From an uncultured Candidatus Saccharibacteria bacterium (GTDB lineage Bacteria > Patescibacteriota > Minisyncoccia > 2-02-FULL-40-12 > GWA2-44-9): DNA of 64,000 nt. The DNA lies in assembly GCA_964513645.1 (NCBI GenBank), contig CAZENF010000001.1, forward strand, positions 135,303 through 199,302, in the 5' to 3' direction. Made by a program: the position numbers and the translations under genes. Of the stretch, positions 7,114-58,125 are shown piece by piece (within the stretch, counting starts at the first letter, position 1; each line of letters opens with the position of its first letter). The notes beneath the pieces are model-generated. The model saw nothing but the letters and a program-made list of their open reading frames with translations. It ran no database searches and was not told where the DNA came from.

Positions 7114-8505
7114 CTATTTTTCAGATTTAAGATGTAATTCCTTGAGCTGTTTCTTCTCAAGCTCCGACGGACTGCCCATCATTAGGTCGCGCGCGTCGCC
7201 AGTTTTTGGAAAAGCAATGACTTCTCTGATGTTCGGCTCGTCATTCAGGATTGAAACGAATCTATCGAGACCCCAGGCAATTCCACCGTGTGGCGGCGCA
7301 CCCGAACCAAGGGCCCGGATCATATGTCCGAAATTATCATCTATCCTCTGTTTTTCAAAACCCATTATCTCAAATACTTTTTCTAAGGCTTCCGACTGAT
7401 GATTCCTGATGCTACCGCCTCCTATTTCCAGACCGTTCAAAACAACATCATATTGAGTAGTGAGTATCTCCCCTACTTTTTCTTTTTTCAAAAGCAAGTC
7501 CATATGGTCCGGAACGGGCCGGGAAAAAGGGTTATGGGTAAAGGTCCAGCCGCCATCATCGGTTTTTTCAAAAAACGGAAAATCAACGATCCAGCAAAAA
7601 GCCAGAAGGTCAGGGTCATTTTTGTCTTTCCTGATATCCGGCCGATCGGTGTCATATTTTTTCATCGCTTCATGATAATTGAGGCGCGGGAAAGGGATTT
7701 CCTGGATTCTTTTTTTGGGATAAAGTTTCTGGACTATCTCGATAAGCAGTTTCTCGTTCAAAGCCATTACGTCTTCGCGGTCGACGAAACTCATTTCCAA
7801 GTCGAGCTGGGTAAATTCCGGTTGTCTGTCACCGCGAGTATCCTCGTCTCTGAAACATCGGGCTATCTGAAAATATTTTTCAAGACCTGCCACCATCAAA
7901 AGCTGTTTATACTGCTGGGGTGACTGCGGTAGAGCATAAAATTTGCCCGAATATAAACGTGAAGGCACAACATAATCCCGGGCGCCTTCGGGAGTTGATT
8001 TGGTCAGTATCGGCGTCTCTATCTCAAAAAAACCCTCATGGTCGAGATAATCTCGTATTAGCTTAATTATCCGGTGACGGGCGGCCATATTGTTTTTCAT
8101 TCTCTCACGCCGTAAATCGACATAGCGGTATTCCATGCGGTGGTCTTCGCCAATTTCACGACCGTCGGTATCAACCGGGAACGGAGGAGTTACAGCTTTG
8201 TTCAAAACCTCGAGTTCCGTTGGCTCTATCTCTACCTTGCCCGTCTCGATATCAAGATTGACCATCTTTTCAGGACGTTCTTTGACCTTGCCTCTTACCC
8301 GAATGACCCATTCCGACCTCAACTGACTCGCGGTTTCATAGAGGTCTTTGGTCCATGGACCGAAAACTATCTGGACCGAACCTGAACGGTCGCGCAAATC
8401 TATGAAAACTATCTTGCCGTGATCACGCCGAACATTGACCCAACCAAAAAGATCGACTTCCTTGCCGATAAGGTCTTTGGTTTCAGAGATATGATTGCGA
8501 TGCAT
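7114..8505 (-). CDS. aspS: Aspartate--tRNA ligase, short archaeal/eukaryal-type form lacking the GAD insertion
   Basis: Class II aaRS motifs (FRDEDTRGDRQPEFTQLD; GSGAPPHGGIAWGLDRFV) with an N-terminal OB fold. The first in-frame Met at 8550 overlaps a hairpin. Start proposed at MHRNHISE (8505). Confidence 0.8.
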   Translation of the reverse strand: MHRNHISETKDLIGKEVDLFGWVNVRRDHGKIVFIDLRDRSGSVQIVFGPWTKDLYETASQLRSEWVIRVRGKVKERPEKMVNLDIETGKVEIEPTELEVLNKAVTPPFPVDTDGREIGEDHRMEYRYVDLRRERMKNNMAARHRIIKLIRDYLDHEGFFEIETPILTKSTPEGARDYVVPSRLYSGKFYALPQSPQQYKQLLMVAGLEKYFQIARCFRDEDTRGDRQPEFTQLDLEMSFVDREDVMALNEKLLIEIVQKLYPKKRIQEIPFPRLNYHEAMKKYDTDRPDIRKDKNDPDLLAFCWIVDFPFFEKTDDGGWTFTHNPFSRPVPDHMDLLLKKEKVGEILTTQYDVVLNGLEIGGGSIRNHQSEALEKVFEIMGFEKQRIDDNFGHMIRALGSGAPPHGGIAWGLDRFVSILNDEPNIREVIAFPKTGDARDLMMGSPSELEKKQLKELHLKSEK

Positions 8506-11296: not shown

Positions 11297-11461
11297 ATGC
11301 CCGACTCCGGTCGGAAAGTTGCACGCCTCAAACTTAGCAGATTATAAAATTAATTGTATGTTTAGTCAAGAAGAAAGGAAATGACATCTAACACGTATAT
11401 ACTGAGAAAATTGTAAAATTCTCTTTTTTATGTTATTATTTGTTGGTTATAATTGTATTAT

Positions 11462-11559
11462 ATCCGCCCATAGTCCGCCCGAATGAACATCCGTTCGGAC
11501 AGGCTCAGTTGGTACCCGCCCGAACGTACCGTTCGGTACGGGCGGGGAGCAGCTCCCTT
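11462..11559 (+). other. Degenerate duplicate of the tRNA-Lys 5' half, interrupted by two related hairpin insertions
   Basis: atccgcccatag / gctcagttggta / ggagcagctccctt match positions 1-31 of the downstream tRNA-Lys. Two related inserts (TCCGCCCGAATGAACATCCGTTCGGACAG and CCCGCCCGAACGTACCGTTCGGTACGGGCGG) form hairpins. The segment lies between a -10 box (TATAAT 11446-11451) and the GIY-YIG ATG. Confidence 0.6.
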
Positions 11560-11565
11560 AACGCT

Positions 11566-11799
11566 ATGTACACTGTTTATATATTAAAAGACGGCTTTGG
11601 TAAGCTATATAAAGGAATGACAAACAATTTGAGCCGGCGATTAAGTGAACACCAGTCAGGGCATACAATTACCACTTCAAAAATGATAAATTTTAGAGTT
11701 GTATATAAAGAAGAGTATGCAAATTTTGAAGAAGCAAGAAAGCGAGAATTATATTTTAAAACAGCCGCAGGACGAAGATTCTTAAAAAAGGTCATATAA
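11566..11799 (+). CDS. GIY-YIG nuclease superfamily protein (small, YhbQ/UPF0213-like)
   Basis: MYTVYILKDGFGKLYKGMTNNLSRRLSEHQ matches the GIY-YIG N-terminal motif. Start moved to the internal Met. Confidence 0.8.
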   Translation: MYTVYILKDGFGKLYKGMTNNLSRRLSEHQSGHTITTSKMINFRVVYKEEYANFEEARKRELYFKTAAGRRFLKKVI

Positions 11800-11814
11800 A
11801 TTGAATAATTATAT

Positions 11815-11887
11815 CCGCCCATAGCTCAGTTGGTAGAGCAGCTCCCTTTTAAGGAGATGGTCGTAGGTTCGACTCCTACTGGGCGGA
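11815..11887 (+). tRNA. tRNA-Lys (anticodon UUU), no encoded CCA
   Basis: 73-nt cloverleaf: acceptor CCGCCCA/TGGGCGG, D-arm GCTC-AGTTGGTA-GAGC, anticodon loop CTTTTAA, T-arm GTAGG-TTCGACT-CCTAC. Confidence 0.9.
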
Positions 11888-13342
11888 CAAGATTGAAAAG
11901 TCAGCATTTTTAGGAGTGTTGGCTATTCTAAAAAATGGTTTTTTATATTGTATTTCCTGAATTTCTTTATTTTCGAACTGGATGTTCCAAAGTACGGAAT
12001 TTAGTATTTGATACCTTTCTGAATCTTCTCCAAATAAAAAGTCATTTTTAGCATTTTTGGCTTGTAAAAATACTTCTTTTGTTTGTTCCAAAGTAGTTAG
12101 GGCAGAATTAATATTACCCTTCTTGATATGGCCTAGTTGGGCTTCTAATTCAACTCTTTGATTATTTAGTTCGAGCATTTTCTCATCATAGAGGTCTTTT
12201 CTAATTGTTCCGGAAGCAAAACCATCAGTCAGTCGTGATTCTTTCTCCTTGATCGAATTTAGCTCATTCTGAACGTTTTTAGATAGTACCTCGACTCGGT
12301 TATTACTCAAACCAATCTTCTGTTTAGCGGCCTCATACATAATTTCGATTGCCTCATCATCAAAAGCCAAATCACCAAGCTTGTCAGCAATCAATCTGGC
12401 TATATATTCTTCTCGCATATATGATTTTCCCTGTTCGCAATTGCCTTTGCCATTAGTACAGTAATAATATCTGTGTCCTCGTTTTAGGGAAGCTGTAAGC
12501 ATACAACCACACTCTTTACATCTCATCGAACCTCTCAACGGAAAGAACAATGTTTTTTGTTTTGGCCTGGAAGCCTGATTAATAACCTCTTGGCACCGAT
12601 CGAATAATTCTTTTGAAACAATAGGTTCAAATTTACCTAAATATTCCTCTCCATTCTTGGCCATAATTCCATAATAAATTTTATTATTTATATGCCGATG
12701 AATACTTCCTAAGAACATCTTGCCTCCAGATTTAGTTCTTAAACCTTCCTCGTAGAGCATATCTGAAATATCCTCAAAACTTTTAGTTCCAGAGGCATAT
12801 AACTCAAATATTCTTTTCACCCAATGGGATTTATCATTCGGGAATAATTGTTTAGTAGACGAATCACGAGAATATCCAAAAGGAACTTGAAACGGCCACC
12901 TGCCCTGTCGCAAACTTTCACGATTACCCCTTTTTACATTTTCAGCCAAATCACGGCTATACTGATTAGCCATACCGAAATGAACTAAAATCATTAACAC
13001 GTTGTCTTTTGGAAGATGAATTCCCTGATAGGTTCTAATTTCTTTAATAATATTTTTCTGAAGAAGATCTATTATTTGGCCGCCGTCAATTAAGTTTCTT
13101 GCCAACCTGTCCTCTTTCCAGCAAAGAATAGCATCTGCTTTTCCGCTAGTAATCATTTTTATCATTTGGGCAAATATTGGCCGCCCGAGAGATTTAGCTG
13201 ACTGGCTTTCTTCAAATATTTTAATAACTTTTAAATTATCCCTTATTGCGATTTCAAGAAGCTCTGTTTTTTGAGCATCCAAAGACATGACTTGTCTGTC
13301 TTCCGATTCAGTAGATTTTCGGCAATAAATTATATATCTCAT
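11876..13342 (-). CDS. Large serine recombinase (integrase)
   Basis: N-terminal resolvase catalytic domain (YCRKSTESEDRQVMSLDAQ), recombinase domain, a zinc ribbon (CKECGC…YYYCTNGKGNC) and a coiled coil. The 3' end overlaps the tRNA-Lys 3' end. Confidence 0.9.
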   Translation of the reverse strand: MRYIIYCRKSTESEDRQVMSLDAQKTELLEIAIRDNLKVIKIFEESQSAKSLGRPIFAQMIKMITSGKADAILCWKEDRLARNLIDGGQIIDLLQKNIIKEIRTYQGIHLPKDNVLMILVHFGMANQYSRDLAENVKRGNRESLRQGRWPFQVPFGYSRDSSTKQLFPNDKSHWVKRIFELYASGTKSFEDISDMLYEEGLRTKSGGKMFLGSIHRHINNKIYYGIMAKNGEEYLGKFEPIVSKELFDRCQEVINQASRPKQKTLFFPLRGSMRCKECGCMLTASLKRGHRYYYCTNGKGNCEQGKSYMREEYIARLIADKLGDLAFDDEAIEIMYEAAKQKIGLSNNRVEVLSKNVQNELNSIKEKESRLTDGFASGTIRKDLYDEKMLELNNQRVELEAQLGHIKKGNINSALTTLEQTKEVFLQAKNAKNDFLFGEDSERYQILNSVLWNIQFENKEIQEIQYKKPFFRIANTPKNADFSILSAQ

Positions 13343-46014: not shown

Positions 46015-46037
46015 GGATTAGTTATTTTAGCACGTTT

Positions 46038-46083
46038 TTACCCAAGATAAAAGCGGTTTCAAACCGCTTTTATCTTGGGTAAA
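46038..46083. other. Long perfect inverted repeat (21-bp arms) between secA and the hibernation-factor gene, possibly a terminator or regulatory hairpin
   Basis: TACCCAAGATAAAAGCGGTTT-c-AAACCGCTTTTATCTTGGGTA. Confidence 0.5.
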
Positions 46084-46086
46084 ATT

Positions 46087-46416
46087 CTATTTTTTAACCC
46101 GCCGGGAGAGGTCTTTGGCCTTGTTTTTTAATTTTTTTATCTGGACCTGAAGCTCATGTTCGACTTTTGTTATCGCCGAACGCAAGTCAACGTGTTCCGA
46201 TTCCCCTCTCAATAAAACTCCGCCTGTTTTTAAGTTTACCTCGGCGTAGAAAACCGGCCCTTTGCGATGCTGTTCCGAAGGTTTGCCGATCTCGACCCTG
46301 GCTTCCGAATCGTCCTTGCCTTTAAAGAATTTAGCGAGATTGCCGATCTTCGCCTCGACAAAAACCCTTAACGGTTCGTCGAGAGTTATGTTTTTTGTGG
46401 TTATGGATATTTTCAT
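46087..46416 (-). CDS. hpf: Ribosome hibernation promoting factor (HPF/RaiA family)
   Basis: MKISITTKNITLDEPLRVFVE … VNLKTGGVLLRGESEHVDLRSAI. The start codon lies in the terminal repeat of IR element copy 1. Confidence 0.85.
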   Translation of the reverse strand: MKISITTKNITLDEPLRVFVEAKIGNLAKFFKGKDDSEARVEIGKPSEQHRKGPVFYAEVNLKTGGVLLRGESEHVDLRSAITKVEHELQVQIKKLKNKAKDLSRRVKK

Positions 46417-46529
46417 CCCGTACGAAGTAGCCTTTACAGGGTCTGAAGGTCAAACGTTTGCCATTCAAATCCATGCAAAGACTTCACCTATTGTCCCGCT
46501 AAAGTTTTTACTACTTCGTACGGGATTCA
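46412..46529 (-). repeat. IR element copy 1 (118 bp, inverted orientation)
   Basis: TTCAT|CCCGTACGAAGT … ACTTCGTACGGGA|TTCAT. The reverse complement of the left end gives GGGATGAAA, which is the hpf start codon. Confidence 0.7.
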
Positions 46530-46549
46530 TGCAAATCATTATATTATCT

Positions 46550-48319
46550 TTATCTTGTGATTTCAACTCCGTTCTTATAGTAGTTCAGTTCCAGGTCACT
46601 TATGGTAAATATTGCATTCCAGTCCCGACCAGAAGCATCCCATTGAGCTGGAGTAAGGTGAAGCCAGTGCTTGGTTCCGGAGGCGATTCCCGTAGAAGTT
46701 CCTCCACGGGAACCTTCGCCTTGCTCCGGCCAAACGGCATACACCTTCTGGTCATTGGCATATTTAACGTAATTTGAAGTTTGGTATGAATCAAAAACTT
46801 CCGGCTCCGGAGAAACCGCCTTCGAAGGGTCAAGTTGTCCGTAAAGTTTAACCACATCCGAGTTAAGATAGCGTTTGTATTTGCCCGAGATAACATATAA
46901 TTCTTTTTCGGTGGGTCTTTTGATCAGCATTCCATCTTGAAGAAGAGGAATATTTTTAACATCCGAACTTTTTACCGAAGAAATCTTTATATTTATCCCG
47001 AAAAGCATCTCATCAGTTCCAAAGTCAGAAATTTTGGTATCTTTGGTCGCAACAACGATCACCTTATCCAAATGTTTGTCCGAAGAATTTACGACAAAAC
47101 CAGTCCCGGAAGCGTTATTTACATTTATCTTATCCAGTCTAACCTGCCCATTACTGTAATAGCTTACTGTTCCAGCAAGGTAACTCTGCCCATTCTGTCC
47201 AGTAACATCTACCCTGAAACTTTGGTTCGGGTCGTTCGATAATTGGCTGACATTGAATTCAAGCCATAAGGGCTGCCAATCTTTGATAGTTTTATAAAAA
47301 TTGTATTCCTGAAGTCCGGGTGAAAGATATATCGTCTGCTCCGGAACAACATGGACAGAGTTAAGACCGGCACGAGTATAACCCAAAACCGGGTCAGCGC
47401 CGATGTTATTCGTATAAACAGCCCCCATCCAATCGACAAAAACATCGCCGAAATTTTCGTAACTGCCATGACTGGCAAGATATTTGTTTATCGAATCAAT
47501 GCCATATGAAGAACCTTTTAAAGTATCGGATAAAATAGAATTTCCGAACCTTTCTGTCAGGTACTCTCCTACCATATTCGCGGCCGCGTAATCAGTTACT
47601 GAATTGGGCCACTCGGTCAGACTATCAGAAGGTTTTTCCAAAAAATCTTGGACCCTATTATCGAGATTTGAACCAAGATAAACATCATTATAACCAAGCA
47701 AGGTTATTGAATATTCAGAGCGGAGTTCGTTTAACCAAGTGGATTCTTGGGAATGACGAAGTAATTCTTTCTGATTAAATGAGATCAGATGCTGGAACTC
47801 GTGCGCCATAAATTCTTTGGCCAGATCGCCTCCGGTTCGAGACAACACATCGCTATTCATGAACATCATTTCTCTTTGATTCGAAGTGGAAACAAGTGAA
47901 CGTGAATATTCATTGGCACTGTTAAAATCCCCGCCGTTGTTTTTTATAAGCTGAGTTACCAGAAGAGTTATCTTTGGGTCATTGTCTATCCCTGGATTTG
48001 GTTCTGAGCCCCAGAATTGGATTTCTTTCGGGTAAATATTGGAATCGAATTCGCTAGTCAATGAGGTTATGTTGGCCACAAGAGAACTTTGTTGTGCCAT
48101 ACTAAGAGAGTTCCAGTAATCATCTTCGACATAGACATATAACTTGTCGCTTGTTTGGCGAAGAGTTGCCGAAACACTTGAGCGACTAAATTTATCGAAC
48201 ACTCGATTAACATAAAAATTTTGACGCTGGCCGACAGTATCAGCAAAAGTTGTGCCGACAAAAAAAAGAAAAAGTAAATAAATTAAAAAAGGATATAAAA
48301 ATTTAGGCCATCTTAGCAT
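46550..48319 (-). CDS. Large secreted protein with an HExxH motif (possible metallopeptidase)
   Basis: Signal peptide and the motif FMAHEFQHLISF. No other recognisable domains. Confidence 0.45.
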   Translation of the reverse strand: MLRWPKFLYPFLIYLLFLFFVGTTFADTVGQRQNFYVNRVFDKFSRSSVSATLRQTSDKLYVYVEDDYWNSLSMAQQSSLVANITSLTSEFDSNIYPKEIQFWGSEPNPGIDNDPKITLLVTQLIKNNGGDFNSANEYSRSLVSTSNQREMMFMNSDVLSRTGGDLAKEFMAHEFQHLISFNQKELLRHSQESTWLNELRSEYSITLLGYNDVYLGSNLDNRVQDFLEKPSDSLTEWPNSVTDYAAANMVGEYLTERFGNSILSDTLKGSSYGIDSINKYLASHGSYENFGDVFVDWMGAVYTNNIGADPVLGYTRAGLNSVHVVPEQTIYLSPGLQEYNFYKTIKDWQPLWLEFNVSQLSNDPNQSFRVDVTGQNGQSYLAGTVSYYSNGQVRLDKINVNNASGTGFVVNSSDKHLDKVIVVATKDTKISDFGTDEMLFGINIKISSVKSSDVKNIPLLQDGMLIKRPTEKELYVISGKYKRYLNSDVVKLYGQLDPSKAVSPEPEVFDSYQTSNYVKYANDQKVYAVWPEQGEGSRGGTSTGIASGTKHWLHLTPAQWDASGRDWNAIFTISDLELNYYKNGVEITR

Positions 48320-48346
48320 AATTTAATTATATCTTTTTTAAGAGTT

Positions 48347-49252
48347 TTACTTAAGACCCGACAAGGATTTGAGTTCTGCAAGACCTTCCTCGATCTTTAC
48401 CCTTGGCTTCCATCCGAGTAGTTTAAGGGCGAGGGAATTGTCGGCTAAAGTGTGTTTAGGTTCAAGCCGGGCCGGGATATATTTGACCGGTCCGCCGATA
48501 AGTTTGGTAATGAGGTTTATAGACTGGTTCTTACCGGCTCCGATATTAATGACCTCGCCGTGGCCCACTTTTTTTGAGCTCATCGCCAGAATATTCGCCC
48601 GGACAACATCCCTGACATGAGTAAAATCTCTGGTCTGTTCGCCGTCGCCGGTAATAGTCATCGGCTCGCCAAATGAACGCTGTTTTAGAAATCTGCCGAC
48701 GACAAGAGCATAAGCACCCTCGGGATCGAGCCTTGGTCCGTAGACATTAAAGTAACGAAGTGAAACGGTGGACAGTCCGTATATTTCACTCCAGAGACGG
48801 CAATAAAGTTCACCGATATATTTTTGGAGACCGTAAGGACTTTTTGGCATTGCCGGAAAATTTTCTTTTAAAGGCATTTTTTTCTGGTCGCCATAAACGG
48901 AACTTGAGGCTGAATATATCAGACGTTTAACTCCGGCCTTCTGGCTAGCCATCAGAACATTCAATGTTCCCGAAACGTTAGTCTTGTTGGCAGTATCGGG
49001 TTCTTCGATCGAGAACTGTACACGCGGTAAAGCGGCAAGATGAAAAACATAATCCACCCCTTTAAAAAGCGGTTCAATCGCTCCGAGGTCGTTTATATCT
49101 CTAACATAAAGCTTCGCTTTTTTATTTACGTTTTCCTTTTTGCCGTTGGACAGATTGTCTATGACCAAAACCTCAAAACCTTGTTCGATAAGAGCATCCG
49201 TTAAATTTGAACCGATAAATCCGGCTCCACCGGTAACAAGTGCTTTTTTCAT
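48347..49252 (-). CDS. NAD-dependent sugar epimerase/dehydratase (UDP-glucose 4-epimerase-like SDR)
   Basis: Rossmann motif VTGGAGFIGSNL and a YxxxK catalytic motif. Confidence 0.85.
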   Translation of the reverse strand: MKKALVTGGAGFIGSNLTDALIEQGFEVLVIDNLSNGKKENVNKKAKLYVRDINDLGAIEPLFKGVDYVFHLAALPRVQFSIEEPDTANKTNVSGTLNVLMASQKAGVKRLIYSASSSVYGDQKKMPLKENFPAMPKSPYGLQKYIGELYCRLWSEIYGLSTVSLRYFNVYGPRLDPEGAYALVVGRFLKQRSFGEPMTITGDGEQTRDFTHVRDVVRANILAMSSKKVGHGEVINIGAGKNQSINLITKLIGGPVKYIPARLEPKHTLADNSLALKLLGWKPRVKIEEGLAELKSLSGLK

Positions 49253-50223
49253 TGTCTTATTTTTTTCCGCTTTTGAAGAATTATCTCCTTGTCATGCCTG
49301 GAAACTTCGGCCATGGCCAGACCTTGAGACTTAATAAGCGTTTCGTTATAGTTTCTGACTGATTTTAAAACCGCCAGACCCGCCTTCATTACGTTTAAAT
49401 GTTCTTTGTCGAGAATTTTTTTATCCGTTGCACTTTTTTCGAGTTCTTGACCAAAAGCAATGAAAGCATTCATATCCTTCGGAAAACAATAGCCCCCGGC
49501 ACCGGAATAATCTCCGTGGTTAACGTTGAGCCAGGCCGGACCGATCCGTAGATCGGCTCCGATAATTTCCCGGATATTATCATAATCAACTTTAATACCT
49601 CGAACCTTTATCATTGCATAACAAAGATCGGCCAGAATATTGCCGTAGATAACTTTTACATAACCAAAAACATTTGAAGCATATTTGCCAAATTCAGCTT
49701 CTGTAGCATTGACCGATTTTTTTGAGTAATCCGAAGTCCAGGGACGTATGAAATTTTTCTTAGGCAAGAGATTAAGAACTTCCACAGTGTCCGAAACGCT
49801 TTTAGCAGTGTGGCCGATTATCTGGCGATCGGGTGACAAAAAATCCTCCCAGGCCTGTGATTCGGTCAAAAATTCAGGATTAAATATGAGGCGTTTTTTA
49901 GGATATTTTTTTTGAAGACTTTCAATAGTCCCCGGAACAATCGTTGATTTAACAACCACCACTTTTCCCTCCTTTATTGACGCAACCGCCGCTTCAACGA
50001 GAGAAGTATTACAGCTACCGTCCGGGTTTGGAGGAGTCGGAACAGAAACAAATATTATATCCGCCAGATTCACATCATCAGTATAACCTTTCTTCGGATC
50101 AACATCGTAGCAAAACAGGTCACGCCCACGTTTATAACCGTTTATTTCTTCGAACCATTTTCTTATCGGTCCGCCGACCATGCCGATACCGATAATGCCT
50201 ATTTTTAGTTTGGTTCGTGACAT
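49249..50223 (-). CDS. UDP-glucose/GDP-mannose 6-dehydrogenase family protein (short)
   Basis: IGIIGIGMVGGPI N-terminal Rossmann motif. NPEFLTESQAWEDFLSPDRQIIG family signature. Confidence 0.7.
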   Translation of the reverse strand: MSRTKLKIGIIGIGMVGGPIRKWFEEINGYKRGRDLFCYDVDPKKGYTDDVNLADIIFVSVPTPPNPDGSCNTSLVEAAVASIKEGKVVVVKSTIVPGTIESLQKKYPKKRLIFNPEFLTESQAWEDFLSPDRQIIGHTAKSVSDTVEVLNLLPKKNFIRPWTSDYSKKSVNATEAEFGKYASNVFGYVKVIYGNILADLCYAMIKVRGIKVDYDNIREIIGADLRIGPAWLNVNHGDYSGAGGYCFPKDMNAFIAFGQELEKSATDKKILDKEHLNVMKAGLAVLKSVRNYNETLIKSQGLAMAEVSRHDKEIILQKRKKIRQ

Positions 50224-50305
50224 TGATTAAGAATATACCATTAAAATAGTTATGAGTCAATTGGTTGACTAAACAATGGTTTTGCTTTATTATATTTAAT
50301 AATTA

Positions 50306-50410
50306 TGAATCCCGTACGAAGTCAGATTCGCTTTAAAAGTGCGAATTAGGCAGATATTCTTAAGACTTCTTCGTAACATGATTTCAACGGGATACTTCGT
50401 ACGGGATGAA
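50306..50410 (+). repeat. IR element copy 2 (105 bp)
   Basis: ATGAA|TCCCGTACGAAGT … ACTTCGTACGGG|ATGAA. The downstream ATG (50406) is the sugar-transferase start. Confidence 0.7.
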
Positions 50411-51722
50411 GAGATTTGGCCTTCTTTTTCTTGATATAGCCGCATTATATGCTGCTTTAACTTTAACGGTCCTTGTAAGATATCCGGATAATTTTGCTTA
50501 CCAATTCGGCCTCCATTCCGGGCCTTTTTTGTTCCTTTTTATTTTATGGCTCATGGTTTTTTATATTACCAATCTTTATGAGCTAAGTTTTCTTAAGAAT
50601 AATATAAATTTTTATACCAGTATTTTCCGAGCAATAGCTTTTGCTTCGTCAATCTCTATCGGTGTGTTTTATCTGCTGCCGATATTTAGCATCACTCCAA
50701 AAACCAACCTGGCTATTTTTATAGTCATATTTGCGGGAATAGTCATGGGCAGCCGGACCCTATTCAATAGGGCCAGCACCAAAGGCGCCAAGAGACCCCT
50801 TCTCATTGTCGGAGTTAACCAACAAACTCTTGATCTTGCAAAATTCATCGAACAAAATCCTCAACTCGGCTACGAACTTAAATACATAATGGATATCGGT
50901 AAAGAAGGCATCCGCGACGTCGACAAATTAATAAGACGGGAGAGAATAAACACGGTTGTCATTGCGCCCGAGGCCTATCAGGTCCCGACAATAGTTGATG
51001 TTTTCTACCGCTCACTCGACAATCAGGTTACTTTTAAGAACCTGTCGAATTTTTACGAAGAACTTACCAATCGTGTTCCTTTGGGTGCAATAAATCAGAT
51101 CTGGTTCCTGGAAAATTTAAGTGAAGGCAACAAAAGAACATACGAGGTCTTGAAAAGATTCTTTGATATTATTTTTTCGGTTCTCTTAAGCATAGTTGTC
51201 CTGCCATTTATACCTCTATTCTCTCTGGCCGTTAAACTCGAATCGTCCGGGCCGGTGTTTTATCGTCAAAGAAGACTGGGACAGAACGGAAAAATATTCG
51301 AGATAATAAAATTCCGGACCATGTCCAAAGATGCCGAGGCAAAAAGCGGCGCGGTTTGGGCCAAAGAGAACGATTCCCGCATTACCCGGCTCGGAAAAAT
51401 ATTCAGAAAGGCGAGAATAGATGAGTTGCCACAGCTTTGGAATATTTTAAGAGGTGAAATGTCGTTTGTCGGTCCAAGAGCCGAAAGGCCCGAGTTCCAT
51501 GACAAATTAAAGAACAACATCCCTTTTTATGAAGGGCGTTACATAATTAAGCCAGGTCTCTCGGGCTGGGCCCAGATAAATTACCGCTACGGTTCGTCCG
51601 TAGAGGATGCGGCAGAAAAACTTCAATATGATCTCTACTACATCAAGAACCGTTCGCTTATTCTTGATCTGGGTATCATTCTAAAAACAATAGATATTTC
51701 TCTTAAGCAGGAGGGTCGGTAA
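50406..51722 (+). CDS. Polyprenyl-phosphate sugar-phosphate transferase (bacterial sugar transferase / WbaP-like)
   Basis: C-terminal catalytic domain KFRTM … DELPQLWNILRGEMSFVGPR plus N-terminal TM helices. Confidence 0.85.
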   Translation: MKRFGLLFLDIAALYAALTLTVLVRYPDNFAYQFGLHSGPFLFLFILWLMVFYITNLYELSFLKNNINFYTSIFRAIAFASSISIGVFYLLPIFSITPKTNLAIFIVIFAGIVMGSRTLFNRASTKGAKRPLLIVGVNQQTLDLAKFIEQNPQLGYELKYIMDIGKEGIRDVDKLIRRERINTVVIAPEAYQVPTIVDVFYRSLDNQVTFKNLSNFYEELTNRVPLGAINQIWFLENLSEGNKRTYEVLKRFFDIIFSVLLSIVVLPFIPLFSLAVKLESSGPVFYRQRRLGQNGKIFEIIKFRTMSKDAEAKSGAVWAKENDSRITRLGKIFRKARIDELPQLWNILRGEMSFVGPRAERPEFHDKLKNNIPFYEGRYIIKPGLSGWAQINYRYGSSVEDAAEKLQYDLYYIKNRSLILDLGIILKTIDISLKQEGR

Positions 51723-51744
51723 TAAAAATAAATTCAAAAAATAA

Positions 51745-51774
51745 AAATCCCCTGCCGACGGCGGGGGATTTTTA
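51745..51774 (+). terminator. Rho-independent terminator
   Basis: CCCCTGCCG-acg-GCGGGGG followed by ATTTTTATT. Confidence 0.6.
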
Positions 51775-51846
51775 TTAACTTATCAACAAAAATTCTTTTT
51801 AATTTTTTTTTTAACTCTATAATTAAAGTATAAATTAAATCCGTCT

Positions 51847-52389
51847 ATGCTGCCTACCAAAATATTTTTCACCAAAGGAGCCGGGACACACAAGGAATAT
51901 TTATCTTCTTTTGAGTTGGCCTTGCGTTCGGCCGGTATCGCTCAATATAACCTGGTTTCCGTTTCCAGCATCTATCCACCGAATGTTAAAAAAGTCTCGC
52001 GCGATGAAGGAGTGACCTTACTTCCCGCGGGTTCAGTAATCCCGGCCGTCATCGCCCGCAATTCTACCAATGAACCAAACCGGCTTATTTCGGCTTCAAT
52101 CGGTGTAGCCATCCCGAATGACCCGAGCCAATACGGATATCTTTCCGAACATCATCCCTTCGGCGAGACCGACGAAAAAGCCGGTGAATATGCCGAAGAT
52201 CTTGCCGCAACAATGTTGGCAACGACCTTAGGTGTAGAATTTGATCCCGAAATTTCCTGGGATGAAAAAGAGCAATTGTTCAAAGCTTCCGGCCAGATAA
52301 TCAGAACCACGAACTTTACTCAATCAGCCATCGGTAACAAAGACGGCCTCTGGACTACTGTCGTCGCGGTTGCGGTATTAATAGAATAA
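51847..52389 (+). CDS. Pyruvoyl-dependent arginine decarboxylase
   Basis: [42 protein letters not shown] matches the PvlArgDC family N-terminus, including the SS processing site. Confidence 0.75.
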
Positions 52390-52437
52390 TCTATTGGTAT
52401 CAAAAACCCACCGTCAGGCGGATTTTTTATTTCCTAT

Positions 52438-54687
52438 CTACCACTGTCTGCCGATTGATTTAACAAAGGCCTGGGCTTCGGCGGTATATTTATCGTCCAC
52501 CGTCGCAGCGGCATGAGCCTGTTCAACAGCTTTATCAAGCATTCCGGCTTTGGCATAAGCTACGGCAAGCGTCGCGTGATATTGTCCGTTATCCGGATAA
52601 TTGGCTACAAGCATCTCGGAAACCCAGACTATTCTAGCCAAATCCCCTTTCTTTTCATAAAGACTAAGAAGTTTCTGAAGGTCCGGTTCGGCCGGTCCGT
52701 ATTTATGGGTTTCGATTATATTTTCAAGAATGCTTAAACCGAGGTCGACATTGCCTCTCTGAATTTCTACCACACCCCAATACCAGGAAGATATTCCGGC
52801 GTCCGGATTTAATTGGGCCGCTTCTTTAAAATATTTTGCAGCGTTATCATAATCTTTTTTATTCAGATATGCTTGACCTATTTCATAATATGTCCTGATG
52901 AAGGTTGGAGAAATTTTAAGTGCGGCCATCGAATACTCGAGAGACTTATCGTTATAAGGAGATTTATCGTCGTCTTTGCCCAGAGTTACATATAATCTTG
53001 CTTCGTAAAGATAAGGCAGATAGTCCGGCTTATTCTCGTCGATATTTTTCTGAACTTGAGCGGCAGCGTCAAGAGTCGCATCGATATATGTCTGATTGAT
53101 CTGGGAAGGAACATTTTCAATTATAAACTGGGCGTATCTGTTCCGGTACTCGTACTTGCCAGGAGCATCGTATGATGTCGCTTCCTGGAATTTAGCGACG
53201 GCGGCCGGAAAATCTTTAGCCCAGCCGGCGATTATGCCCCGGGTCGAGGCATAATTGGCCAGTGAAGTCTGGATATTTACCATATAGATACAGATGAACG
53301 ACGTCACGAAAAGAGCCGCCCCGGTCATGACCCAAAGACCCTGATTTACTCTCCGCTGAATCGGTTTTTTATTCTCAACAGTTTTTGGAACAGAAAGATA
53401 TGATATGAACCCGAGGATAGTAAAGAAAACCAGAAAATTTGCAGAAGTATCAAAGATAAAAGAATTGTGAATAACATAGGCGATGAGTAATGATATAAAA
53501 CCGACACCGTACAGAGTGGTATCTTTGTTGTGGATGTTCTTCCATAAAGACTGGAAACTTGAAATAAATATCCAAATGTATGTTCCGAGTCCAAGAAGCC
53601 CCATTGTTACAAGTATCTCGACGAACATATTGTGAGCCCGGTCGAATAAGGTTTCCGCACCCGGTCCACTGAAGAATTTAGGATTAAAATATTTCGAGAA
53701 CGGCACATCAAAATTTTCAGGACCCCAGCCGAGCAAAATTGTTTTTGGTCCTTCCTTCCAGCCTTTTAAGCCGGCCTGCCAAGCCCAAAAACGCGTCTTA
53801 ACTGTCTGGTCGGTCAAAGAAAAATTAGTGATCCTTTTCAAATAACCTGAATTCTGGACAAGCGGTGTATTTTTCAATAAAAGAGCGGCCACCACAAACA
53901 CTGCCGCAAGCGCTATCAAAGTTAAAAGTATTTTCTTCGCCTTTTGAGAACGATAAGCCGAGGAATAGAGCAAAGCAAATGTCAAAAAGCCGACACAAAT
54001 ACCAAGTATCGAGCCTCTGACCACGGTCATAAAGGCAGCAATGAACATTATCAAAGCGGAGCTACCGTAAAATATCCTGAAATTCTTTGAGATCCCCGAC
54101 TTGAATATGAACATTCCGGACAGAAAAGCCAATAATATCTGATACCCGGCAAACAAGGCCGGGTTGCCGATCGTACCGAATATTCTTTCGCGGCCACCAG
54201 AACCGATAAAGAAGTCGATGTTTGTCCTTTGGCCGAAACCATAAAAAGCCGAGAGGACCCCAGCAAATATCATTACATCGAAGAGTCTTATCCAGTCCTT
54301 TTCGTTCTTAAATACTGAAATCAAGATTATAAAGTAAACAAAATAATGCCAGAATGTTACCGCTCCGCCCATCCTTTCAAGAGAACCCCAGGCGCTAATA
54401 TAAGGTATAACGCTGGTGATAGCAGTCAGGGTAAAGGCACAGGCAAAAAAGAAAAAAGCCCAGCTGACCCGCGTCATCTTCGGTAAATAGCTCCCGTCCT
54501 TCCAAATCAGAAGAATGTAAAAAACAACCATCAATTCGACAATACTTCTGAACACAACCACCTTTCCGAAATGGAAAGGTGAAATAAAATCATTAAAAAT
54601 TATCAGCGGCATAAAAGCCGCACCATAGATGAACCAACGCAATATCTTAGCAAAAACGTGTTCTTTCATACCGTAAAAGATTACCAC
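52438..54687 (-). CDS. O-antigen ligase-like polytopic membrane protein with C-terminal TPR repeats
   Basis: About 12 TM helices. The C-terminal ~250 aa carry TPR-like repeats. Confidence 0.65.
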   Translation of the reverse strand: MVIFYGMKEHVFAKILRWFIYGAAFMPLIIFNDFISPFHFGKVVVFRSIVELMVVFYILLIWKDGSYLPKMTRVSWAFFFFACAFTLTAITSVIPYISAWGSLERMGGAVTFWHYFVYFIILISVFKNEKDWIRLFDVMIFAGVLSAFYGFGQRTNIDFFIGSGGRERIFGTIGNPALFAGYQILLAFLSGMFIFKSGISKNFRIFYGSSALIMFIAAFMTVVRGSILGICVGFLTFALLYSSAYRSQKAKKILLTLIALAAVFVVAALLLKNTPLVQNSGYLKRITNFSLTDQTVKTRFWAWQAGLKGWKEGPKTILLGWGPENFDVPFSKYFNPKFFSGPGAETLFDRAHNMFVEILVTMGLLGLGTYIWIFISSFQSLWKNIHNKDTTLYGVGFISLLIAYVIHNSFIFDTSANFLVFFTILGFISYLSVPKTVENKKPIQRRVNQGLWVMTGAALFVTSFICIYMVNIQTSLANYASTRGIIAGWAKDFPAAVAKFQEATSYDAPGKYEYRNRYAQFIIENVPSQINQTYIDATLDAAAQVQKNIDENKPDYLPYLYEARLYVTLGKDDDKSPYNDKSLEYSMAALKISPTFIRTYYEIGQAYLNKKDYDNAAKYFKEAAQLNPDAGISSWYWGVVEIQRGNVDLGLSILENIIETHKYGPAEPDLQKLLSLYEKKGDLARIVWVSEMLVANYPDNGQYHATLAVAYAKAGMLDKAVEQAHAAATVDDKYTAEAQAFVKSIGRQW

Positions 54688-54715
54688 AAAAAAGTTTTAA
54701 TTCAAAATTTAATTC

Positions 54716-56029
54716 TTACGTTTCAAGCTTTCTTGAAAGATATATAAATGAGATGAGATGGCTGATCGTGAACCAGAGCGTAACCATTATCACTGCGCCC
54801 CAGATAGCAAAATTTGCGACCAGCCATAAACCTAAAGGAATACCCGCGGCAAGTGTCACAATATTTATAAGGATAGAAACTTTGACCCGGTTGACCGCCC
54901 GCCACATAGGACCGAGACCGATGCCGATGCCGTAAAATGCACCGTAAACGAAAAATCCAAAAATATACTTAATGCTCGGCAGAAATCTTGAACCGTAAAT
55001 TATCTTGAACAAGATCGGAGCCGCAATTACTCCGCCCGCGGTAAGAAGCGCCGACAATGCCATCGCGTACAACGATACTCTGACAAAATTCTGGCGGAGA
55101 CGATGGGTTTCTCCGGCCTGCATTTTAGGAAACTCGACGTTCAAAAGTATCGATATCGGACCAAGAAGGCTCATTATCAAATTTATATATCCGAAAGCGA
55201 GTTTAAAAAAAGAGACCTCGGAAACCGTTACATATGCCCCGACGATCAGAACCGGCAGTATCATATATAGCATCGAGATGTTGCGGTCCAAGGCAACCCA
55301 GAAACTGAAACCGAAATATTTTTTATAATCTATTTTCGACCCGTGAATCAGATTTCTTATCGAGGGCAGGATGGGGTTGGATCTTTTTATCTTTTCCCAG
55401 ACAACCACTGAAATTATAAAAACTATCATGGCACCGATGAGATGCGCGCTGACTGCACCGGCAATACCAAATCCCAGAAGGACCAGAATCAATGAGAGCG
55501 ACCAACGGGTGACCTGATCAACAACACCCAACGACATCATATCCTGTATCCTGCCGGTTATCTGAAGGGCAATGGTCGAGAAAGAAAAAAAAGAATTGGA
55601 AATTATCCCCGCCAGAACAACAATCATTGCATAGAACCCTATCATTGAGTTATGGTAGTATTTTGCCGATATTAAAGGCGCAAAAAATATCAGAGTCAAG
55701 GAGATCAAAGAAGTAATGATCGTGATGCCGAAAAGAAATCTAAAAATATTAAAAATCTCTTTTTCGTCTTTTTTGGTATAGCTTGCGCCGAGCAGAGATG
55801 AAGCGGCATCCTGAACGCCGGTGGCGAGAAGAATGCTTAAGAGCGAGGCCAAACTCATCGACAAACTATAAACACCAAAACGCTCTGGCTGCAAAAGCCG
55901 AGCCAAAAAAATACCGACCACCGCCTGGGTCATCGTTTCTATCAAATTACCTGCCTGGAGGGTAAAGGCCTGGCGGACGAACCAATGCTGTCGGTAGTAT
56001 TCGATTTTTCCCCTGATATTACTAAGCAT
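54716..56029 (-). CDS. Polysaccharide flippase (Wzx / MOP superfamily)
   Basis: 437 aa with about 12 TM helices and polysaccharide-biosynthesis-protein architecture, within a glycan cluster. Confidence 0.7.
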   Translation of the reverse strand: MLSNIRGKIEYYRQHWFVRQAFTLQAGNLIETMTQAVVGIFLARLLQPERFGVYSLSMSLASLLSILLATGVQDAASSLLGASYTKKDEKEIFNIFRFLFGITIITSLISLTLIFFAPLISAKYYHNSMIGFYAMIVVLAGIISNSFFSFSTIALQITGRIQDMMSLGVVDQVTRWSLSLILVLLGFGIAGAVSAHLIGAMIVFIISVVVWEKIKRSNPILPSIRNLIHGSKIDYKKYFGFSFWVALDRNISMLYMILPVLIVGAYVTVSEVSFFKLAFGYINLIMSLLGPISILLNVEFPKMQAGETHRLRQNFVRVSLYAMALSALLTAGGVIAAPILFKIIYGSRFLPSIKYIFGFFVYGAFYGIGIGLGPMWRAVNRVKVSILINIVTLAAGIPLGLWLVANFAIWGAVIMVTLWFTISHLISFIYLSRKLET

Positions 56030-56105
56030 TTGATGAAAATCCTTATAACTATACCCTAAAAATCAGGGATTGTAAAAAAATTTTTTTTATAATAATCTTC
56101 TAACA

Positions 56106-57191
56106 ATGGCTCGAAACAAGAAAATCAAAACCGCTCTCATAACCGGCATTACCGGCCAAGATGGCTCGTACCTCGCCGAATTCCTACTGCACAAACACTA
56201 CGACGTTCACGGCATCATCCGCCGCGCTTCGACTTTCAATACCGTCAGACTGAATAACATTTATCAGGACCCTCATGTCGTTGACAGAAAATTAACCCTT
56301 CATTACGGGGATCTTGCCGATGCCGGAACGATAAGAAAGATAATTTACAAAATTAAACCGGATGAAATATACAATCTTGGCGCCCAGTCCCATGTCAAAG
56401 TTTCTTTTGAGATTCCTGAATATACGATGGACATCACCGGCAATGGTGCCCTCCGGGTTCTTGATGCAATAAGGGACTTTGAACAGGATACCGGCAAAAA
56501 AGTTAAATTTTACCAGGCCTCAAGTTCCGAAATGTTCGGTGCCTCTCCCCCGCGCCAGAATGAGAAAACTCCCTTCAAACCTCAGAGTCCGTACGGTGCC
56601 GCGAAGGTTTTTGCCTATAACATGACCAACCTTTACCGCGAAGCTTACGGAATATTCACGGTCAACGGAATTTTATTCAACCACGAGTCCCCGCGCCGGG
56701 GCGAGACTTTCGTCACCCGTAAAATAACCCGGGGCATTGCCCGCATCAAAGCCGGCCTTGATAAAAAAATATATCTCGGCAATCTCGACGCCAAACGCGA
56801 CTGGGGTTATGCGCCCGAATATATGAAAGCAGCCTGGCTGATGATGCAACGCGAAAAACCGGACAATTATGTCATTGGCACCGGCGAAACCCATACTGTC
56901 AGAGAATTCGTGGAGCTGGCTTTTCAAATTGCCGGCCTGGGTGACTGGAAAAAATACGTTGAAGTAGACCCGCGATACTATCGTCCAGCCGAGGTCCACC
57001 ATCTCGTAGCCGATTATGCCAAGGCCAGACGGAACCTTAACTGGCGGCCAAAAACAAAATTCAAAGACTTGGTAAAAATAATGGTCAGAGCAGACTTGAA
57101 TGAATCCCGTACGAAGTCACGCTCGCCACAAGGTGGCGAGTCCGTAGGACCTCGGCGGGGCTACTTCGTACGGGATGAATTTAAAAAATAA
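56106..57191 (+). CDS. gmd: GDP-mannose 4,6-dehydratase, with the last ~25 codons supplied by IR element copy 3
   Basis: [19 protein letters not shown] with YxxxK and other SDR motifs. The C-terminal tail [29 protein letters not shown] is encoded by the repeat element. Confidence 0.9.
57101..57179 (+). repeat. IR element copy 3 (79 bp)
   Basis: ATGAA|TCCCGTACGAAGT … ACTTCGTACGGG|ATGAA. The downstream ATG (57175) is the fcl start. The interior has a GCTCGCC/GGCGAG hairpin. Confidence 0.7.
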
Positions 57192-58125
57192 AAAAATTCT
57201 CGTCACGGGCGGAGCCGGATTTCTCGGCTCTTTTGTCGTGAAAAAACTTCTCGAACGCGGCGTCCCCAAGAAAAATATATTTGTTCCACGTTCAAAAGAC
57301 CTCGACCTCCGTAAAATTGAGAACTGTGTCAAAGCCGTGAAAGGACGAGACGTCGTCATCCATCTCGCCGCCATCGTCGGCGGTATCGGTTATAACCAAA
57401 AAGTTCCCGGTCAAATGTTCTATGACAACCTGACGATGGGCGCCCAACTCTTAGAAGCGGCCCGGCAGAATAGAATTGAAAAGTTCATAGCCATCGGAAC
57501 AGTTTGCGCTTATCCCAAACACACACCGGTTCCTTTCAAAGAATCCGACCTCTGGAACGGCTATCCTGAAGAGACCAACGCCCCTTACGGTCTGGCCAAA
57601 AAAATGCTTCTCGTCCAGTCCCAGGCCTACCGCCAGGAATACGGGCTTAATTCTATTTACCTCCTACCGGTAAATCTCTACGGGCCCGGAGATAATTTTA
57701 ACGACAAAACTTCGCATGTCATTCCGGCTTTGATAAAAAAAGTAGCCGAAGCCAAGAGATCAGAACAAAAACACATCGAGGTCTGGGGTTCAGGCAAAGC
57801 CTCACGTGAATTTTTATACGTGGAAGATTGCGCCGAAGGAATTGTTTTGGCCGCAGAAAAATACGATAAACCTGAACCGGTAAACATCGGCGCCGGAAGA
57901 GAAATAAAAATTAAAGATCTGGTTACAACTATTTGCCGGTTAATGGATTTCAAGGGCGAGATAAGATGGGATAAAACCAAGCCAGACGGTCAACCCAGAA
58001 GAATGCTCGATACAACTCTCGCCAAAAAAGAATTCGGGTTCAAGGCAAAGATGGATTTTGAAGATGGCCTTACCAGAACTATCTCCTGGTACAAAAATCA
58101 AGAATTAAAAAGGCAGCCTTCATAG
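57175..58125 (+). CDS. fcl: GDP-L-fucose synthase (GDP-4-keto-6-deoxymannose 3,5-epimerase/4-reductase)
   Basis: [15 protein letters not shown] Rossmann motif, SDR fold, and position immediately downstream of gmd. Confidence 0.85.

Follow-up and report, generated by a model that had tools for sequence, protein, structure and literature searches.

Hairpin inserts at start codons in Patescibacteria: probable miniature derivatives of a very small nuclease-encoding mobile element

Correia elements of Neisseria, also known as CREE or NEMIS, are non-coding, 50-150 bp long, bounded by terminal inverted repeats and a short flanking duplication, and present in many copies beside genes. In mRNA, the Correia hairpin can be bound and cleaved by RNase III, and it alters expression (PMC2649163). 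A second kind of selfish insert, exemplified by I-TevI and the free-standing GIY-YIG homing endonuclease genes of phage T4 (seg), has a nuclease as its only product; seg-type inserts are wedged between genes or at their edges, cause minimal disruption and tie their expression to that of their neighbours (PMC2988022). Here, we describe three inserts with Correia-like traits in a 64,000-nt stretch of DNA (hereafter the window) from an uncultured Candidatus Saccharibacteria bacterium (GTDB lineage Bacteria; Patescibacteriota; Minisyncoccia; 2-02-FULL-40-12; GWA2-44-9), corresponding to positions 135,303 to 199,302 of the forward strand of contig CAZENF010000001.1 (GenBank assembly GCA_964513645.1). 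Each sits exactly at the start codon of a gene, and longer elements with the same kind of ends, found in related genomes, encode a small GIY-YIG nuclease. We consider it likely that the window inserts are derivatives, resembling MITEs (miniature inverted-repeat transposable elements), of a very small nuclease-encoding mobile element with a preference for ATGRA cores and start codons, and that the regenerated downstream ATG serves the host gene.

Three inserts in the window and their empty sites

The 12-mer CCCGTACGAAGT and its reverse complement have exactly six matches in the window, arranged as three convergent pairs (46417-46428/46513-46524, 50311-50322/50394-50405 and 57106-57117/57163-57174); about 0.008 matches would be expected by chance in random 64 kb (2 x 64000 / 4^12), and the paired-arm pattern arose in none of 100 shuffles. 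The inverted repeat extends to 14 nt in all three copies (ATCCCGTACGAAGT / ACTTCGTACGGGAT) and to 16 nt in copy 1, for which an inverted-repeat search returned perfect arms at 46415-46430 and 46511-46526. Read in the direction of the gene, every copy has the layout ATGAA-T-[CCCG...CGGG]-ATGAA. The original prediction, an earlier reading of the same letters, had proposed shared terminal inverted repeats and a flanking ATGAA direct repeat, and both descriptions hold, with identical 12-nt arms (14 nt counting the AT) and ATGAA on either side of each copy. Its interior sizes of 38-92 bp need correction, as the interiors between the 12-nt arms measure 84, 71 and 45 nt in inserts of 108, 95 and 69 bp (copies 1, 2 and 3), with ATG-to-ATG distances of 114, 101 and 75 nt.

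Copy 1 (46417-46524, minus strand) lies at the start of hpf (46416 to 46087, minus), which encodes a raiA-type ribosome hibernation factor whose Pfam S30AE domain aligns from residue 3. Its upstream core occupies 46525-46530 on the same strand, with ATGAA at 46530 to 46526 and, at 46525, a T that pairs with the A of the hpf ATG; the downstream ATGAA (46412-46416, minus) comprises the functional start codon of hpf and 2 further nt, and the two outermost stem pairs are formed by its A and T. Copy 2 (50311-50405, plus strand) precedes a Bac_transf sugar transferase gene (50406-51722, plus) that opens with the downstream core at 50406-50410. Its upstream ATGAA and T (50305-50310, plus) open a 14-codon open reading frame (ORF) that stops within the element, as had been anticipated, and the distance of 101 nt between the two ATGs is out of frame. 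Copy 3 (57106-57174, plus), which is GC-rich, interrupts the overlap between gmd (56106-57191, plus) and fcl (57175-58125, plus), a gene for a GDP-fucose synthase-like epimerase; its upstream ATGAA and T (57100-57105, plus) fall within the 3' end of gmd, and its downstream core (57175-57179) opens fcl. The earlier assignment of the downstream ATGAA as the start of all three genes is borne out. All three copies are non-coding, with short ORFs only that end inside the element. An independent Logan assembly (SRR12313479, locus L046) shows 100% identity across 2854 bp that take in copy 3, which therefore is not an assembly artefact.

Empty sites had been suggested as a test of insertion, and they exist at two of the orthologous loci. 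The closest gmd relative (L045, 84% identical) reads ...AATAATTAATGAATCTCAAAA / ...AATAATTAATGAATCTC..., with one ATGAAT as the fcl start and no insert; its Gmd ends in ...DIKEFNN followed by the stop, and the window Gmd, minus the element, would end in ...ADLNEFKK. An 18-residue stretch of the window Fcl aligns with an 18-residue stretch of the orthologue. A syntenic hpf orthologue (L127; unknown ORF, hpf, secA) likewise has a single ATGAAAAT and no element. Because the closest gmd-fcl and hpf relatives keep a single ATGAA without an insert, the window inserts are insertions. Starts of hpf appear to have been hit more than once, since an orthologue from another Parcubacteria lineage (L129) carries its own, different hairpin, imperfect and partly decayed (CCCGTGGGATAT...ATATCCATCGGG, 516-600), directly before the ATG.

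The effect of copy 3 on gmd is in keeping with the same history. A 25-codon, in-frame and stop-free read-through of the element separates the last five codons of gmd from the rest, and the gene keeps its former stop codon, which falls 17 nt into fcl. No alignment to this extension was seen for any of the 119 further gmd homologues listed (query coverage 89-94%), so the finding that would have counted against insertion, a gmd already extended in relatives that lack the repeat, was sought among them and did not turn up; the window protein has 361 aa, compared with 329-350 aa for most of them. The prediction of about 25 foreign codons in gmd stands, but the upstream ATG of copy 3 lies outside the gmd frame (TTG AAT GAA TCC), contrary to what had been supposed.

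The wider family and its nuclease-encoding members

A scan of one genome per GTDB species for both arms, 60-90 nt apart, yielded 29 matching loci, all in metagenome-assembled genomes of Patescibacteria (Nomura-, Yanofsky- and Zambryskibacteria, Paceibacterota and some labelled Saccharibacteria). Nearly all have ATGAAT...ATGAA flanks, and a long ORF begins with the base that follows the right arm; the flank variants co-vary (ATGGAT...ATGGA, ATGTAT...ATGTA, ATGCCT...ATGCA). Tabulation of flanks beyond the window, as originally proposed, thus recovers the same flanks and the same association with start codons. IMG/VR viral contigs, searched for the arms with a gap of 40-70, yielded no copies. A protein-anchored metagenome scan added 80 loci, bringing the pooled set to 137 unique hairpin elements, 135 of them with usable flanks; these comprise 65 full-length elements of 273-284 bp and 70 miniature elements of 33-228 bp. 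Copies are dense: the 64-kb window has three, as many as five lie within 8.2 kb at L095, and the density over L047-L126 is 2.3 per 10 kb. The window copies show the descriptive hallmarks of MITEs, being small, non-coding and multi-copy, with shared terminal inverted repeats, flanking repeats and empty sites.

Among the 135 elements, the right flank is ATGAA in 64, ATGGA in 13 and GTGAA in 8. The five bases before the spacer base and the five after the right arm are identical in 72 and agree at four or more positions in 88. Non-ATG cores (ATTAG, ATTAA, ATAAA, GCTGG, GTCAA) occur among the remaining elements. Of the originally proposed ATGAA target specificity, the preference survives, but the core is better written as ATGRA-like than as strictly ATGAA. 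In 130 of 135 elements, the spacer base forms a pair with the base that opens the right flank, T accompanying ATG and C accompanying GTG, and the second outer pair is Watson-Crick in 110, or in 124 when G-U is counted. Because these two outermost pairs form, the stem has 14 bp and includes the first two bases of the host start codon. Two descriptions of the same structure are equivalent: a duplication of 5 bp with one additional base, or an inverted repeat of 14 bp with a duplication of 2 bp (1 bp in the ATGAT class). The subfamilies have different arm sequences (CCCGTACGAAGT / ACTTCGTACGGG; CCCGTACGAAAT / ATTTCGTACGGG; CCCGTTAGAGAT / ATCTCTAACGGG; CACGTACGAAAT / ATTTCGTACGTG). Compensatory changes are found at 11 of the 14 stem pairs, and 96.9% of cells are paired; the inner 12 pairs served as the detection criterion, so their pairing statistics are biased, and the outer two, which were not used for detection, provide the sole unbiased test.

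Full-length elements consist of a 12-14-bp left arm, 4-10 nt and an 86-codon ORF for a GIY-YIG protein of the UPF0213 type, whose last four codons (F-R-T-G) are the right arm itself; the conserved C-terminus reads ...RFLFRTG. Two such copies, of 276 bp each and 94% identical, occupy different genes of one contig (L004). The protein matches Pfam GIY-YIG (PF01541) with E = 8e-15 and 55 bits against a cut-off of 22.6, NCBIfam has no named family for it, and residues Y6, Y8, Y19, T20, R29 and E65 are invariant in 24 sequences. The invariant Tyr, Tyr-x-Gly, Arg and Glu positions presumably have the catalytic roles ascribed to them in the GIY-YIG family. The search returned 1528 homologues; among the 120 listed, identity ranges from 70 to 100% and a length of 86 aa predominates. 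The ORF is intact in 62 of the 65 full-length copies, and in 51 its stop is the TGA of the host (A/G)TGA. In the genomic contexts examined, the nuclease gene always overlaps the next gene by 4 nt (for example, an SDR gene or rplI). A link to the window is provided by L122, a frameshifted full-length pseudogene with the window's exact AAGT/ACTT arms.

A tblastn search with the nuclease found no full-length copy in the window; a match at 46859-46921 was dismissed as chance similarity within a 589-aa ORF. As a separate observation, a divergent GIY-YIG ORF of 74 aa (11566-11787), which shares 41% identity with the element nuclease, is situated just upstream of a tRNA-Lys(ttt) gene (11815-11888), the 5' half of which is duplicated as three exact pieces (11457-11473, 11503-11514 and 11547-11559) with two short palindromic inserts between them. 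From its sequence, the 11457-11888 region looks like a second kind of GIY-YIG element, lodged in a tRNA gene and rebuilding part of it.

Among solved structures, the closest in sequence are the UPF0213 proteins BH0048 (1zg2, E = 9e-5) and EF2693. The predicted nuclease fold (pLDDT 83.6) matches BH0048 best and then the nuclease domains of Slx1 (TM 0.6-0.66, rmsd about 2-4 Å); in Foldseek, the Slx1 domains rank ahead of UvrC and I-TevI, with weak E-values (0.0015-0.06). This Slx1-like predicted fold, together with a stem in which pairing is conserved over sequence, favours structure-specific cleavage, which would in turn explain why pairing rather than sequence is conserved. In the mechanism we propose, the small nuclease would move both full-length and miniature elements by cutting at the base of the stem, and a staggered cut or microhomology at the core would give rise to the duplication of 1-2 nt (or 4-5 nt). 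With the core on both sides, insertion regenerates an intact start codon directly after the right arm. A bolder formulation, to which we lend slightly less than even credence, holds that the 273-284-bp elements are a new class of autonomous mobile DNA and the smallest known. Their sole protein, an 86-residue Slx1-like nuclease, would read the element's own extruded hairpin by shape; integration would be specific to start codons, with the host start rebuilt from the terminal bases and the host ATGA serving as the element's own stop, and the window copies would be non-coding passengers.

Element interiors group into families common to several genomes. Family A, of about 99 nt, has 13 full-length members and 84% identity per column in an alignment of 12. 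The interiors of the three window copies, described from the start as unrelated, are so among themselves, but each has relatives elsewhere: that of copy 1 is closest to L024, that of copy 2 is weakly similar to L026, and that of copy 3 belongs to a family common to L006:1406 and L016:5842. With short inverted repeats around a small segment directly upstream of glycan-synthesis genes, the window copies also call to mind an invertible, phase-variable switch, in which a recombinase would act at the repeats and inversion of the interior would toggle downstream surface-polysaccharide genes. We give this explanation hardly any weight, as identical arms precede housekeeping genes, the interiors lack a consistent promoter, the independent assembly has the same orientation, and direct repeats and empty sites point to insertion. 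A search for an outward promoter inside family A returned weak consensus matches only, and a comparison of orientations for the copy 1 interior against family B gave identities of 0.54 and 0.55, from short matches only. The arms resemble loxP half-sites (ACTTCGTA), and the joined ends a serine-recombinase site (14-bp arms, central GA); both likenesses were set aside as resemblances only, and the full-length element involves no recombinase; the attC core (R/L box GTTRRRY) is absent from the arm sequence on direct reading.

Elements also occur on and inside one another. One copy is nested (L002:4045), and head-to-tail stacks with the right flank ATGATCCC... are found at L053, L060, L066, L072, L076 and L093, as well as at L095, where just 5-6 nt (ATGAT, ATAAT, ATCAT or ATGAAT) separate one right arm from the next left arm. 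To judge from these junctions, it looks as if the start codon rebuilt by one insertion becomes the target of the next. The same orthologous start can bear a full-length element in one species and miniatures in others (L050 versus L001/L028, L073 versus L027, L040 versus L056). Together with the L004 paralogues and the L122 pseudogene, these arrangements count as indications of mobility. Elements can be 84-87% identical at the nucleotide level while their host proteins are about 50% identical (L054/L059/L065), and those of L009 and L010 show 85% nucleotide identity against 28% host protein identity. That the elements outconserve their host genes implies either horizontal spread into the same sites or selection on the elements.

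Two further loci may be recorded here. The 612-bp contig L043 joins an upstream flank identical to that of L040, with the 276-bp element of the rplI locus, to a downstream gene identical to that of L051; the L040 and L051 elements are only 86% identical, and L043 reflects either genuine recombination between two element copies or a chimeric assembly. Locus L002 contains two 48-bp mini-elements (4975-5022 and 7827-7874), 94% identical, in opposite orientation and 2.8 kb apart. Their flanks are GTCAAC / GTCAAC and GTCAAC / GTTGAC, and the pair brackets the intervening segment like a composite element.

Start codons and expression of the host genes

Of the 135 unique elements, 88 are immediately followed by an ATG or GTG with which an ORF of 50 codons or more begins, and several of the remainder are stacked head-to-tail on, or nested in, another element. 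Across 657 kb from the same loci, ATGRA sites that carry no element occur 172 times at ORF starts, 419 times in intergenic DNA and 2785 times in coding DNA. With crude gene calls, and about six occupied non-start sites tallied by hand, occupancy is about 34% at starts versus roughly 1% in intergenic DNA; at a third against a hundredth, the pentamer alone is insufficient to account for the bias towards starts.

Which of the two start codons is used can be read from the decay of the cores. The upstream core is altered in 28 of the 88 start-associated copies (ATGAT in 11, GTG/TTG in 3, start lost in 7, other changes in 7; examples include ATGAT, GTGAAT, ATAAT and TTGAAT). An intact downstream start is part of the definition of this class, and the upstream decay alone is informative; it favours the downstream ATG as the start in use and speaks against models that depend on an upstream AUG. 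One such model is ribosomal bypass or scanning, in which initiation would occur at the upstream AUG, in its original ribosome-binding context, followed by a hop over the hairpin to the downstream AUG, as in phage T4 gene 60. A stable hairpin between matched 'take-off' and 'landing' AUGAA sequences fits this idea, as do the GGA/GGAG motifs resembling Shine-Dalgarno (SD) sequences 0-3 nt ahead of the upstream ATG in many loci, and the gap of gene 60 is likewise borne by a mobile element (bioRxiv 10.1101/2022.08.31.505936). Neither the spacing nor the interiors are conserved, however, and the upstream ORFs extend 7-35 codons into the element with no common stop position; given these features and the loss or alteration of the upstream ATG in those 28 copies, bypass is highly improbable. 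A role as an N-terminal extension was also rejected, since the ATG-to-ATG distances show no preference for multiples of three and the upstream ORFs end inside the element. Three other comparisons were uninformative or negative: SD spacing failed to discriminate (SD motifs are rare in these genomes, their spacing is scattered and 20 cases only were usable), no consistent ORF inside the miniature elements would support stop/start coupling, and excision footprints (ATGAATATGAA and similar) are not enriched at gene starts.

Host genes elsewhere include rpoC, thrS, pheT, rplI, an H+-PPase, a pilus ATPase, a solute-binding protein and a transporter. Several of these (rpoC, thrS, pheT, rplI) are essential, so insertion must be compatible with expression. 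The original prediction had offered, as its second reading, a conserved stem that sequesters the translation start. Sequestration is a real physical consequence, in that the AU of the host AUG falls inside the predicted stem when the window copies are folded as RNA (copy 1, -51.6 kcal/mol, z = -6.6; copy 2, -34.5 kcal/mol, z = -2.75; copy 3, -46 kcal/mol, z = -6.2), but the stem leaves the origin of the inserts unexplained. A selected, non-mobile cis-regulatory leader, a translational operator masking the start codons of a regulon until a trans-acting factor opens it, would suit this geometry, as well as the identical arms at three unrelated window genes and in distant genomes and the conservation of family A interiors at about 85% where host proteins are 28% identical. 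We nevertheless regard such a leader as very unlikely: the element is missing from orthologues (L045, L127), core duplications, protein-coding versions, nested or stacked copies and copies away from genes are hard to reconcile with it, and the hosts, from hpf and fcl to rpoC, thrS, pheT, rplI, the pilus ATPase and the transporter, have no functional theme. The first reading of the original prediction, a miniature transposable element with an ATGAA preference, gains support from the empty sites, the flanks shared with copies elsewhere and the nuclease-encoding full-length versions.

At hpf, a sigma-70-like promoter (TTGAAA-17-TATAAT, 46538-46566, minus; 11 of 12 consensus positions, by consensus match only) has a -10 box that ends 7 nt ahead of the upstream ATG. 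The ancestral hpf mRNA was, by this reckoning, probably leaderless, and copy 1 would now form its structured 5' leader, the stem holding the AU of the real AUG. Another promoter-like site lies just upstream of copy 2 (50265-50293). Such an arrangement invites comparison with an intron-like intervening sequence, in which a stem-recognising protein would excise or cleave the element in RNA, leaving a near-leaderless mRNA, with the GIY-YIG ORF in a homing role as in group I introns. Transcription from the predicted hpf promoter would start at the upstream ATG and place the element in the mRNA; its presence in rpoC, thrS, pheT and rplI means that it is phenotypically near-neutral, its compensatory stem conservation extends to the bases of the host AUG, and removal without a scar would be possible thanks to the direct repeat. 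Correia elements also offer a precedent for RNase III cutting MITE hairpins within mRNA (PMC2649163). Against this, the elements have no Rfam match at gathering or permissive thresholds, the closing stem is the sole consensus structure in the 12-member family A alignment, and a ribozyme core is lacking, the interiors being completely different from one family to the next. Non-start, intergenic, nested and stacked copies are better explained by DNA insertion, and we consider the intron-like alternative unlikely.

If the inserts are instead derivatives of a mobile element, as we favour, host genes would be translated from the downstream ATG by routes that differ between copies. At full-length elements, translation would proceed by stop/start (ATGA) coupling to the nuclease ORF. 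Since copy 3 is in frame and stop-free, ribosomes completing gmd stop 17 nt into fcl, just as they would at the empty site; the read-through would preserve gmd-fcl coupling and may provide for fcl translation. At copies 1 and 2, the stem might be melted by ribosomes that translate the short upstream ORF, or the hairpin might be processed by a nuclease.

Several neighbouring features of the window deserve mention in their own right. Most of its long ORFs have no SD motif, and several have -10-like boxes a few bases ahead of the ATG, a pattern of sequence suggesting that mRNAs with no leader or a very short one are widespread in this genome. Between the end of hpf and the start of secA (46036-46084, minus), the gap is filled by a perfect 24-bp palindrome with a 1-nt loop (TTTTACCCAAGATAAAAGCGGTTT / AAACCGCTTTTATCTTGGGTAAAA), unrelated in sequence to the start-codon elements. 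Adjoining copy 2, a UDP-glucose/GDP-mannose dehydrogenase-like ORF (49249-50223, 324 aa) matches its N-terminal Pfam domain from profile position 70 only and has no C-terminal domain; it may be truncated or degraded.

A number of points weigh against mobility driven by the small nuclease. No transposition, excision or circular-junction read has been observed, mobility being deduced from comparative data only. The window contains no full-length copy, and its sole GIY-YIG ORF (11566-11787) is 41% identical and stands in a different context. Copies at different loci, apart from the L004 paralogues, are mostly well diverged (few pairs reach 93% identity), and nothing points to a recent burst. Enzymes of the GIY-YIG type are hydrolytic nucleases for which no strand-transfer activity is known, and an 86-aa catalytic core offers no DNA-binding domain to explain the choice of ATGRA and start codons. 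Co-variation of the two ends would also be expected if one protein binds both. The excess at start codons could partly reflect retention, because precise deletion alone removes an element from a start. Finally, a ribosome would have to gain access to a start codon with its AU buried in a hairpin of -35 to -52 kcal/mol and no SD motif between.

Comparison with described systems

The searchable literature yielded no description of GIY-YIG hairpin elements or of start-codon MITEs in the Candidate Phyla Radiation (CPR), and a MITE survey of 183,232 genomes does not describe these elements (PMC11602168). They are seemingly undescribed, and there is a substantial chance that the full-length element represents a categorically new transposon class; we know of no insertion-sequence family that uses a GIY-YIG nuclease alone. 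Should the nuclease move the elements, it would provide a new enzymatic basis for DNA transposition, lower the size limit of an autonomous mobile element to below 300 bp and constitute a mobile element aimed at start codons. Irrespective of mechanism, Patescibacteria genomes carry these inserts densely (the sampled loci have about 2 per 10 kb), and the start codons of essential genes are among their sites. Fake upstream ATGs and false protein extensions, as in gmd, mislead start-site calling and annotation. The inserts also raise the question of how translation initiates right after a very stable hairpin in reduced bacteria that often lack an SD sequence.

Among proteins, the element nuclease is closest, by the sequences of solved structures, to the UPF0213/COG2827 group (BH0048, EF2693 and E. 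coli YhbQ), for which no mobile-element role was found described in the searchable literature. Slx1 is a structure-specific nuclease for branched DNA, according to PDB entry titles; it differs from the element nuclease in having an extra RING/zinc domain and a partner, Slx4.

Among mobile elements, the IS200/IS605 family and its PATE derivatives resemble the start-codon elements in their very small size, the central role of hairpin DNA and a short, specific target of 4-5 nt adjoining the element. Members of IS200/IS605 use an HUH (Y1) transposase, make no target duplication and have ends that are not inverted copies of each other. The start-codon elements are not of this type, since their sole ORF is a GIY-YIG protein rather than an HUH enzyme and a duplication is present. 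Rickettsia palindromic elements (RPE) are palindromic mini-elements tolerated as in-frame peptide insertions, much like copy 3 in gmd; unlike the start-codon elements, they are not tied to start codons and have no known nuclease partner with shared ends.

The T4 seg and I-TevI systems share the principle of a selfish insert with a nuclease as its only product. They differ in possessing DNA-binding domains and long recognition sites in one specific gene, and in lacking inverted-repeat ends and a duplication, whereas the start-codon elements encode an 86-aa catalytic core only, occupy many unrelated host genes and have perfect-hairpin ends. With many unrelated hosts and a single-domain protein of 86 aa, they do not correspond to a classical homing endonuclease gene. 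The closest functional analogues of the window copies are the Correia elements. These have 26-bp repeats and a TA target, with no placement at start codons and no nuclease-only partner known; the start-codon elements, by comparison, have a stem that includes the host start codon, an ATGRA target and a 276-bp partner that shares their ends and encodes a GIY-YIG nuclease.

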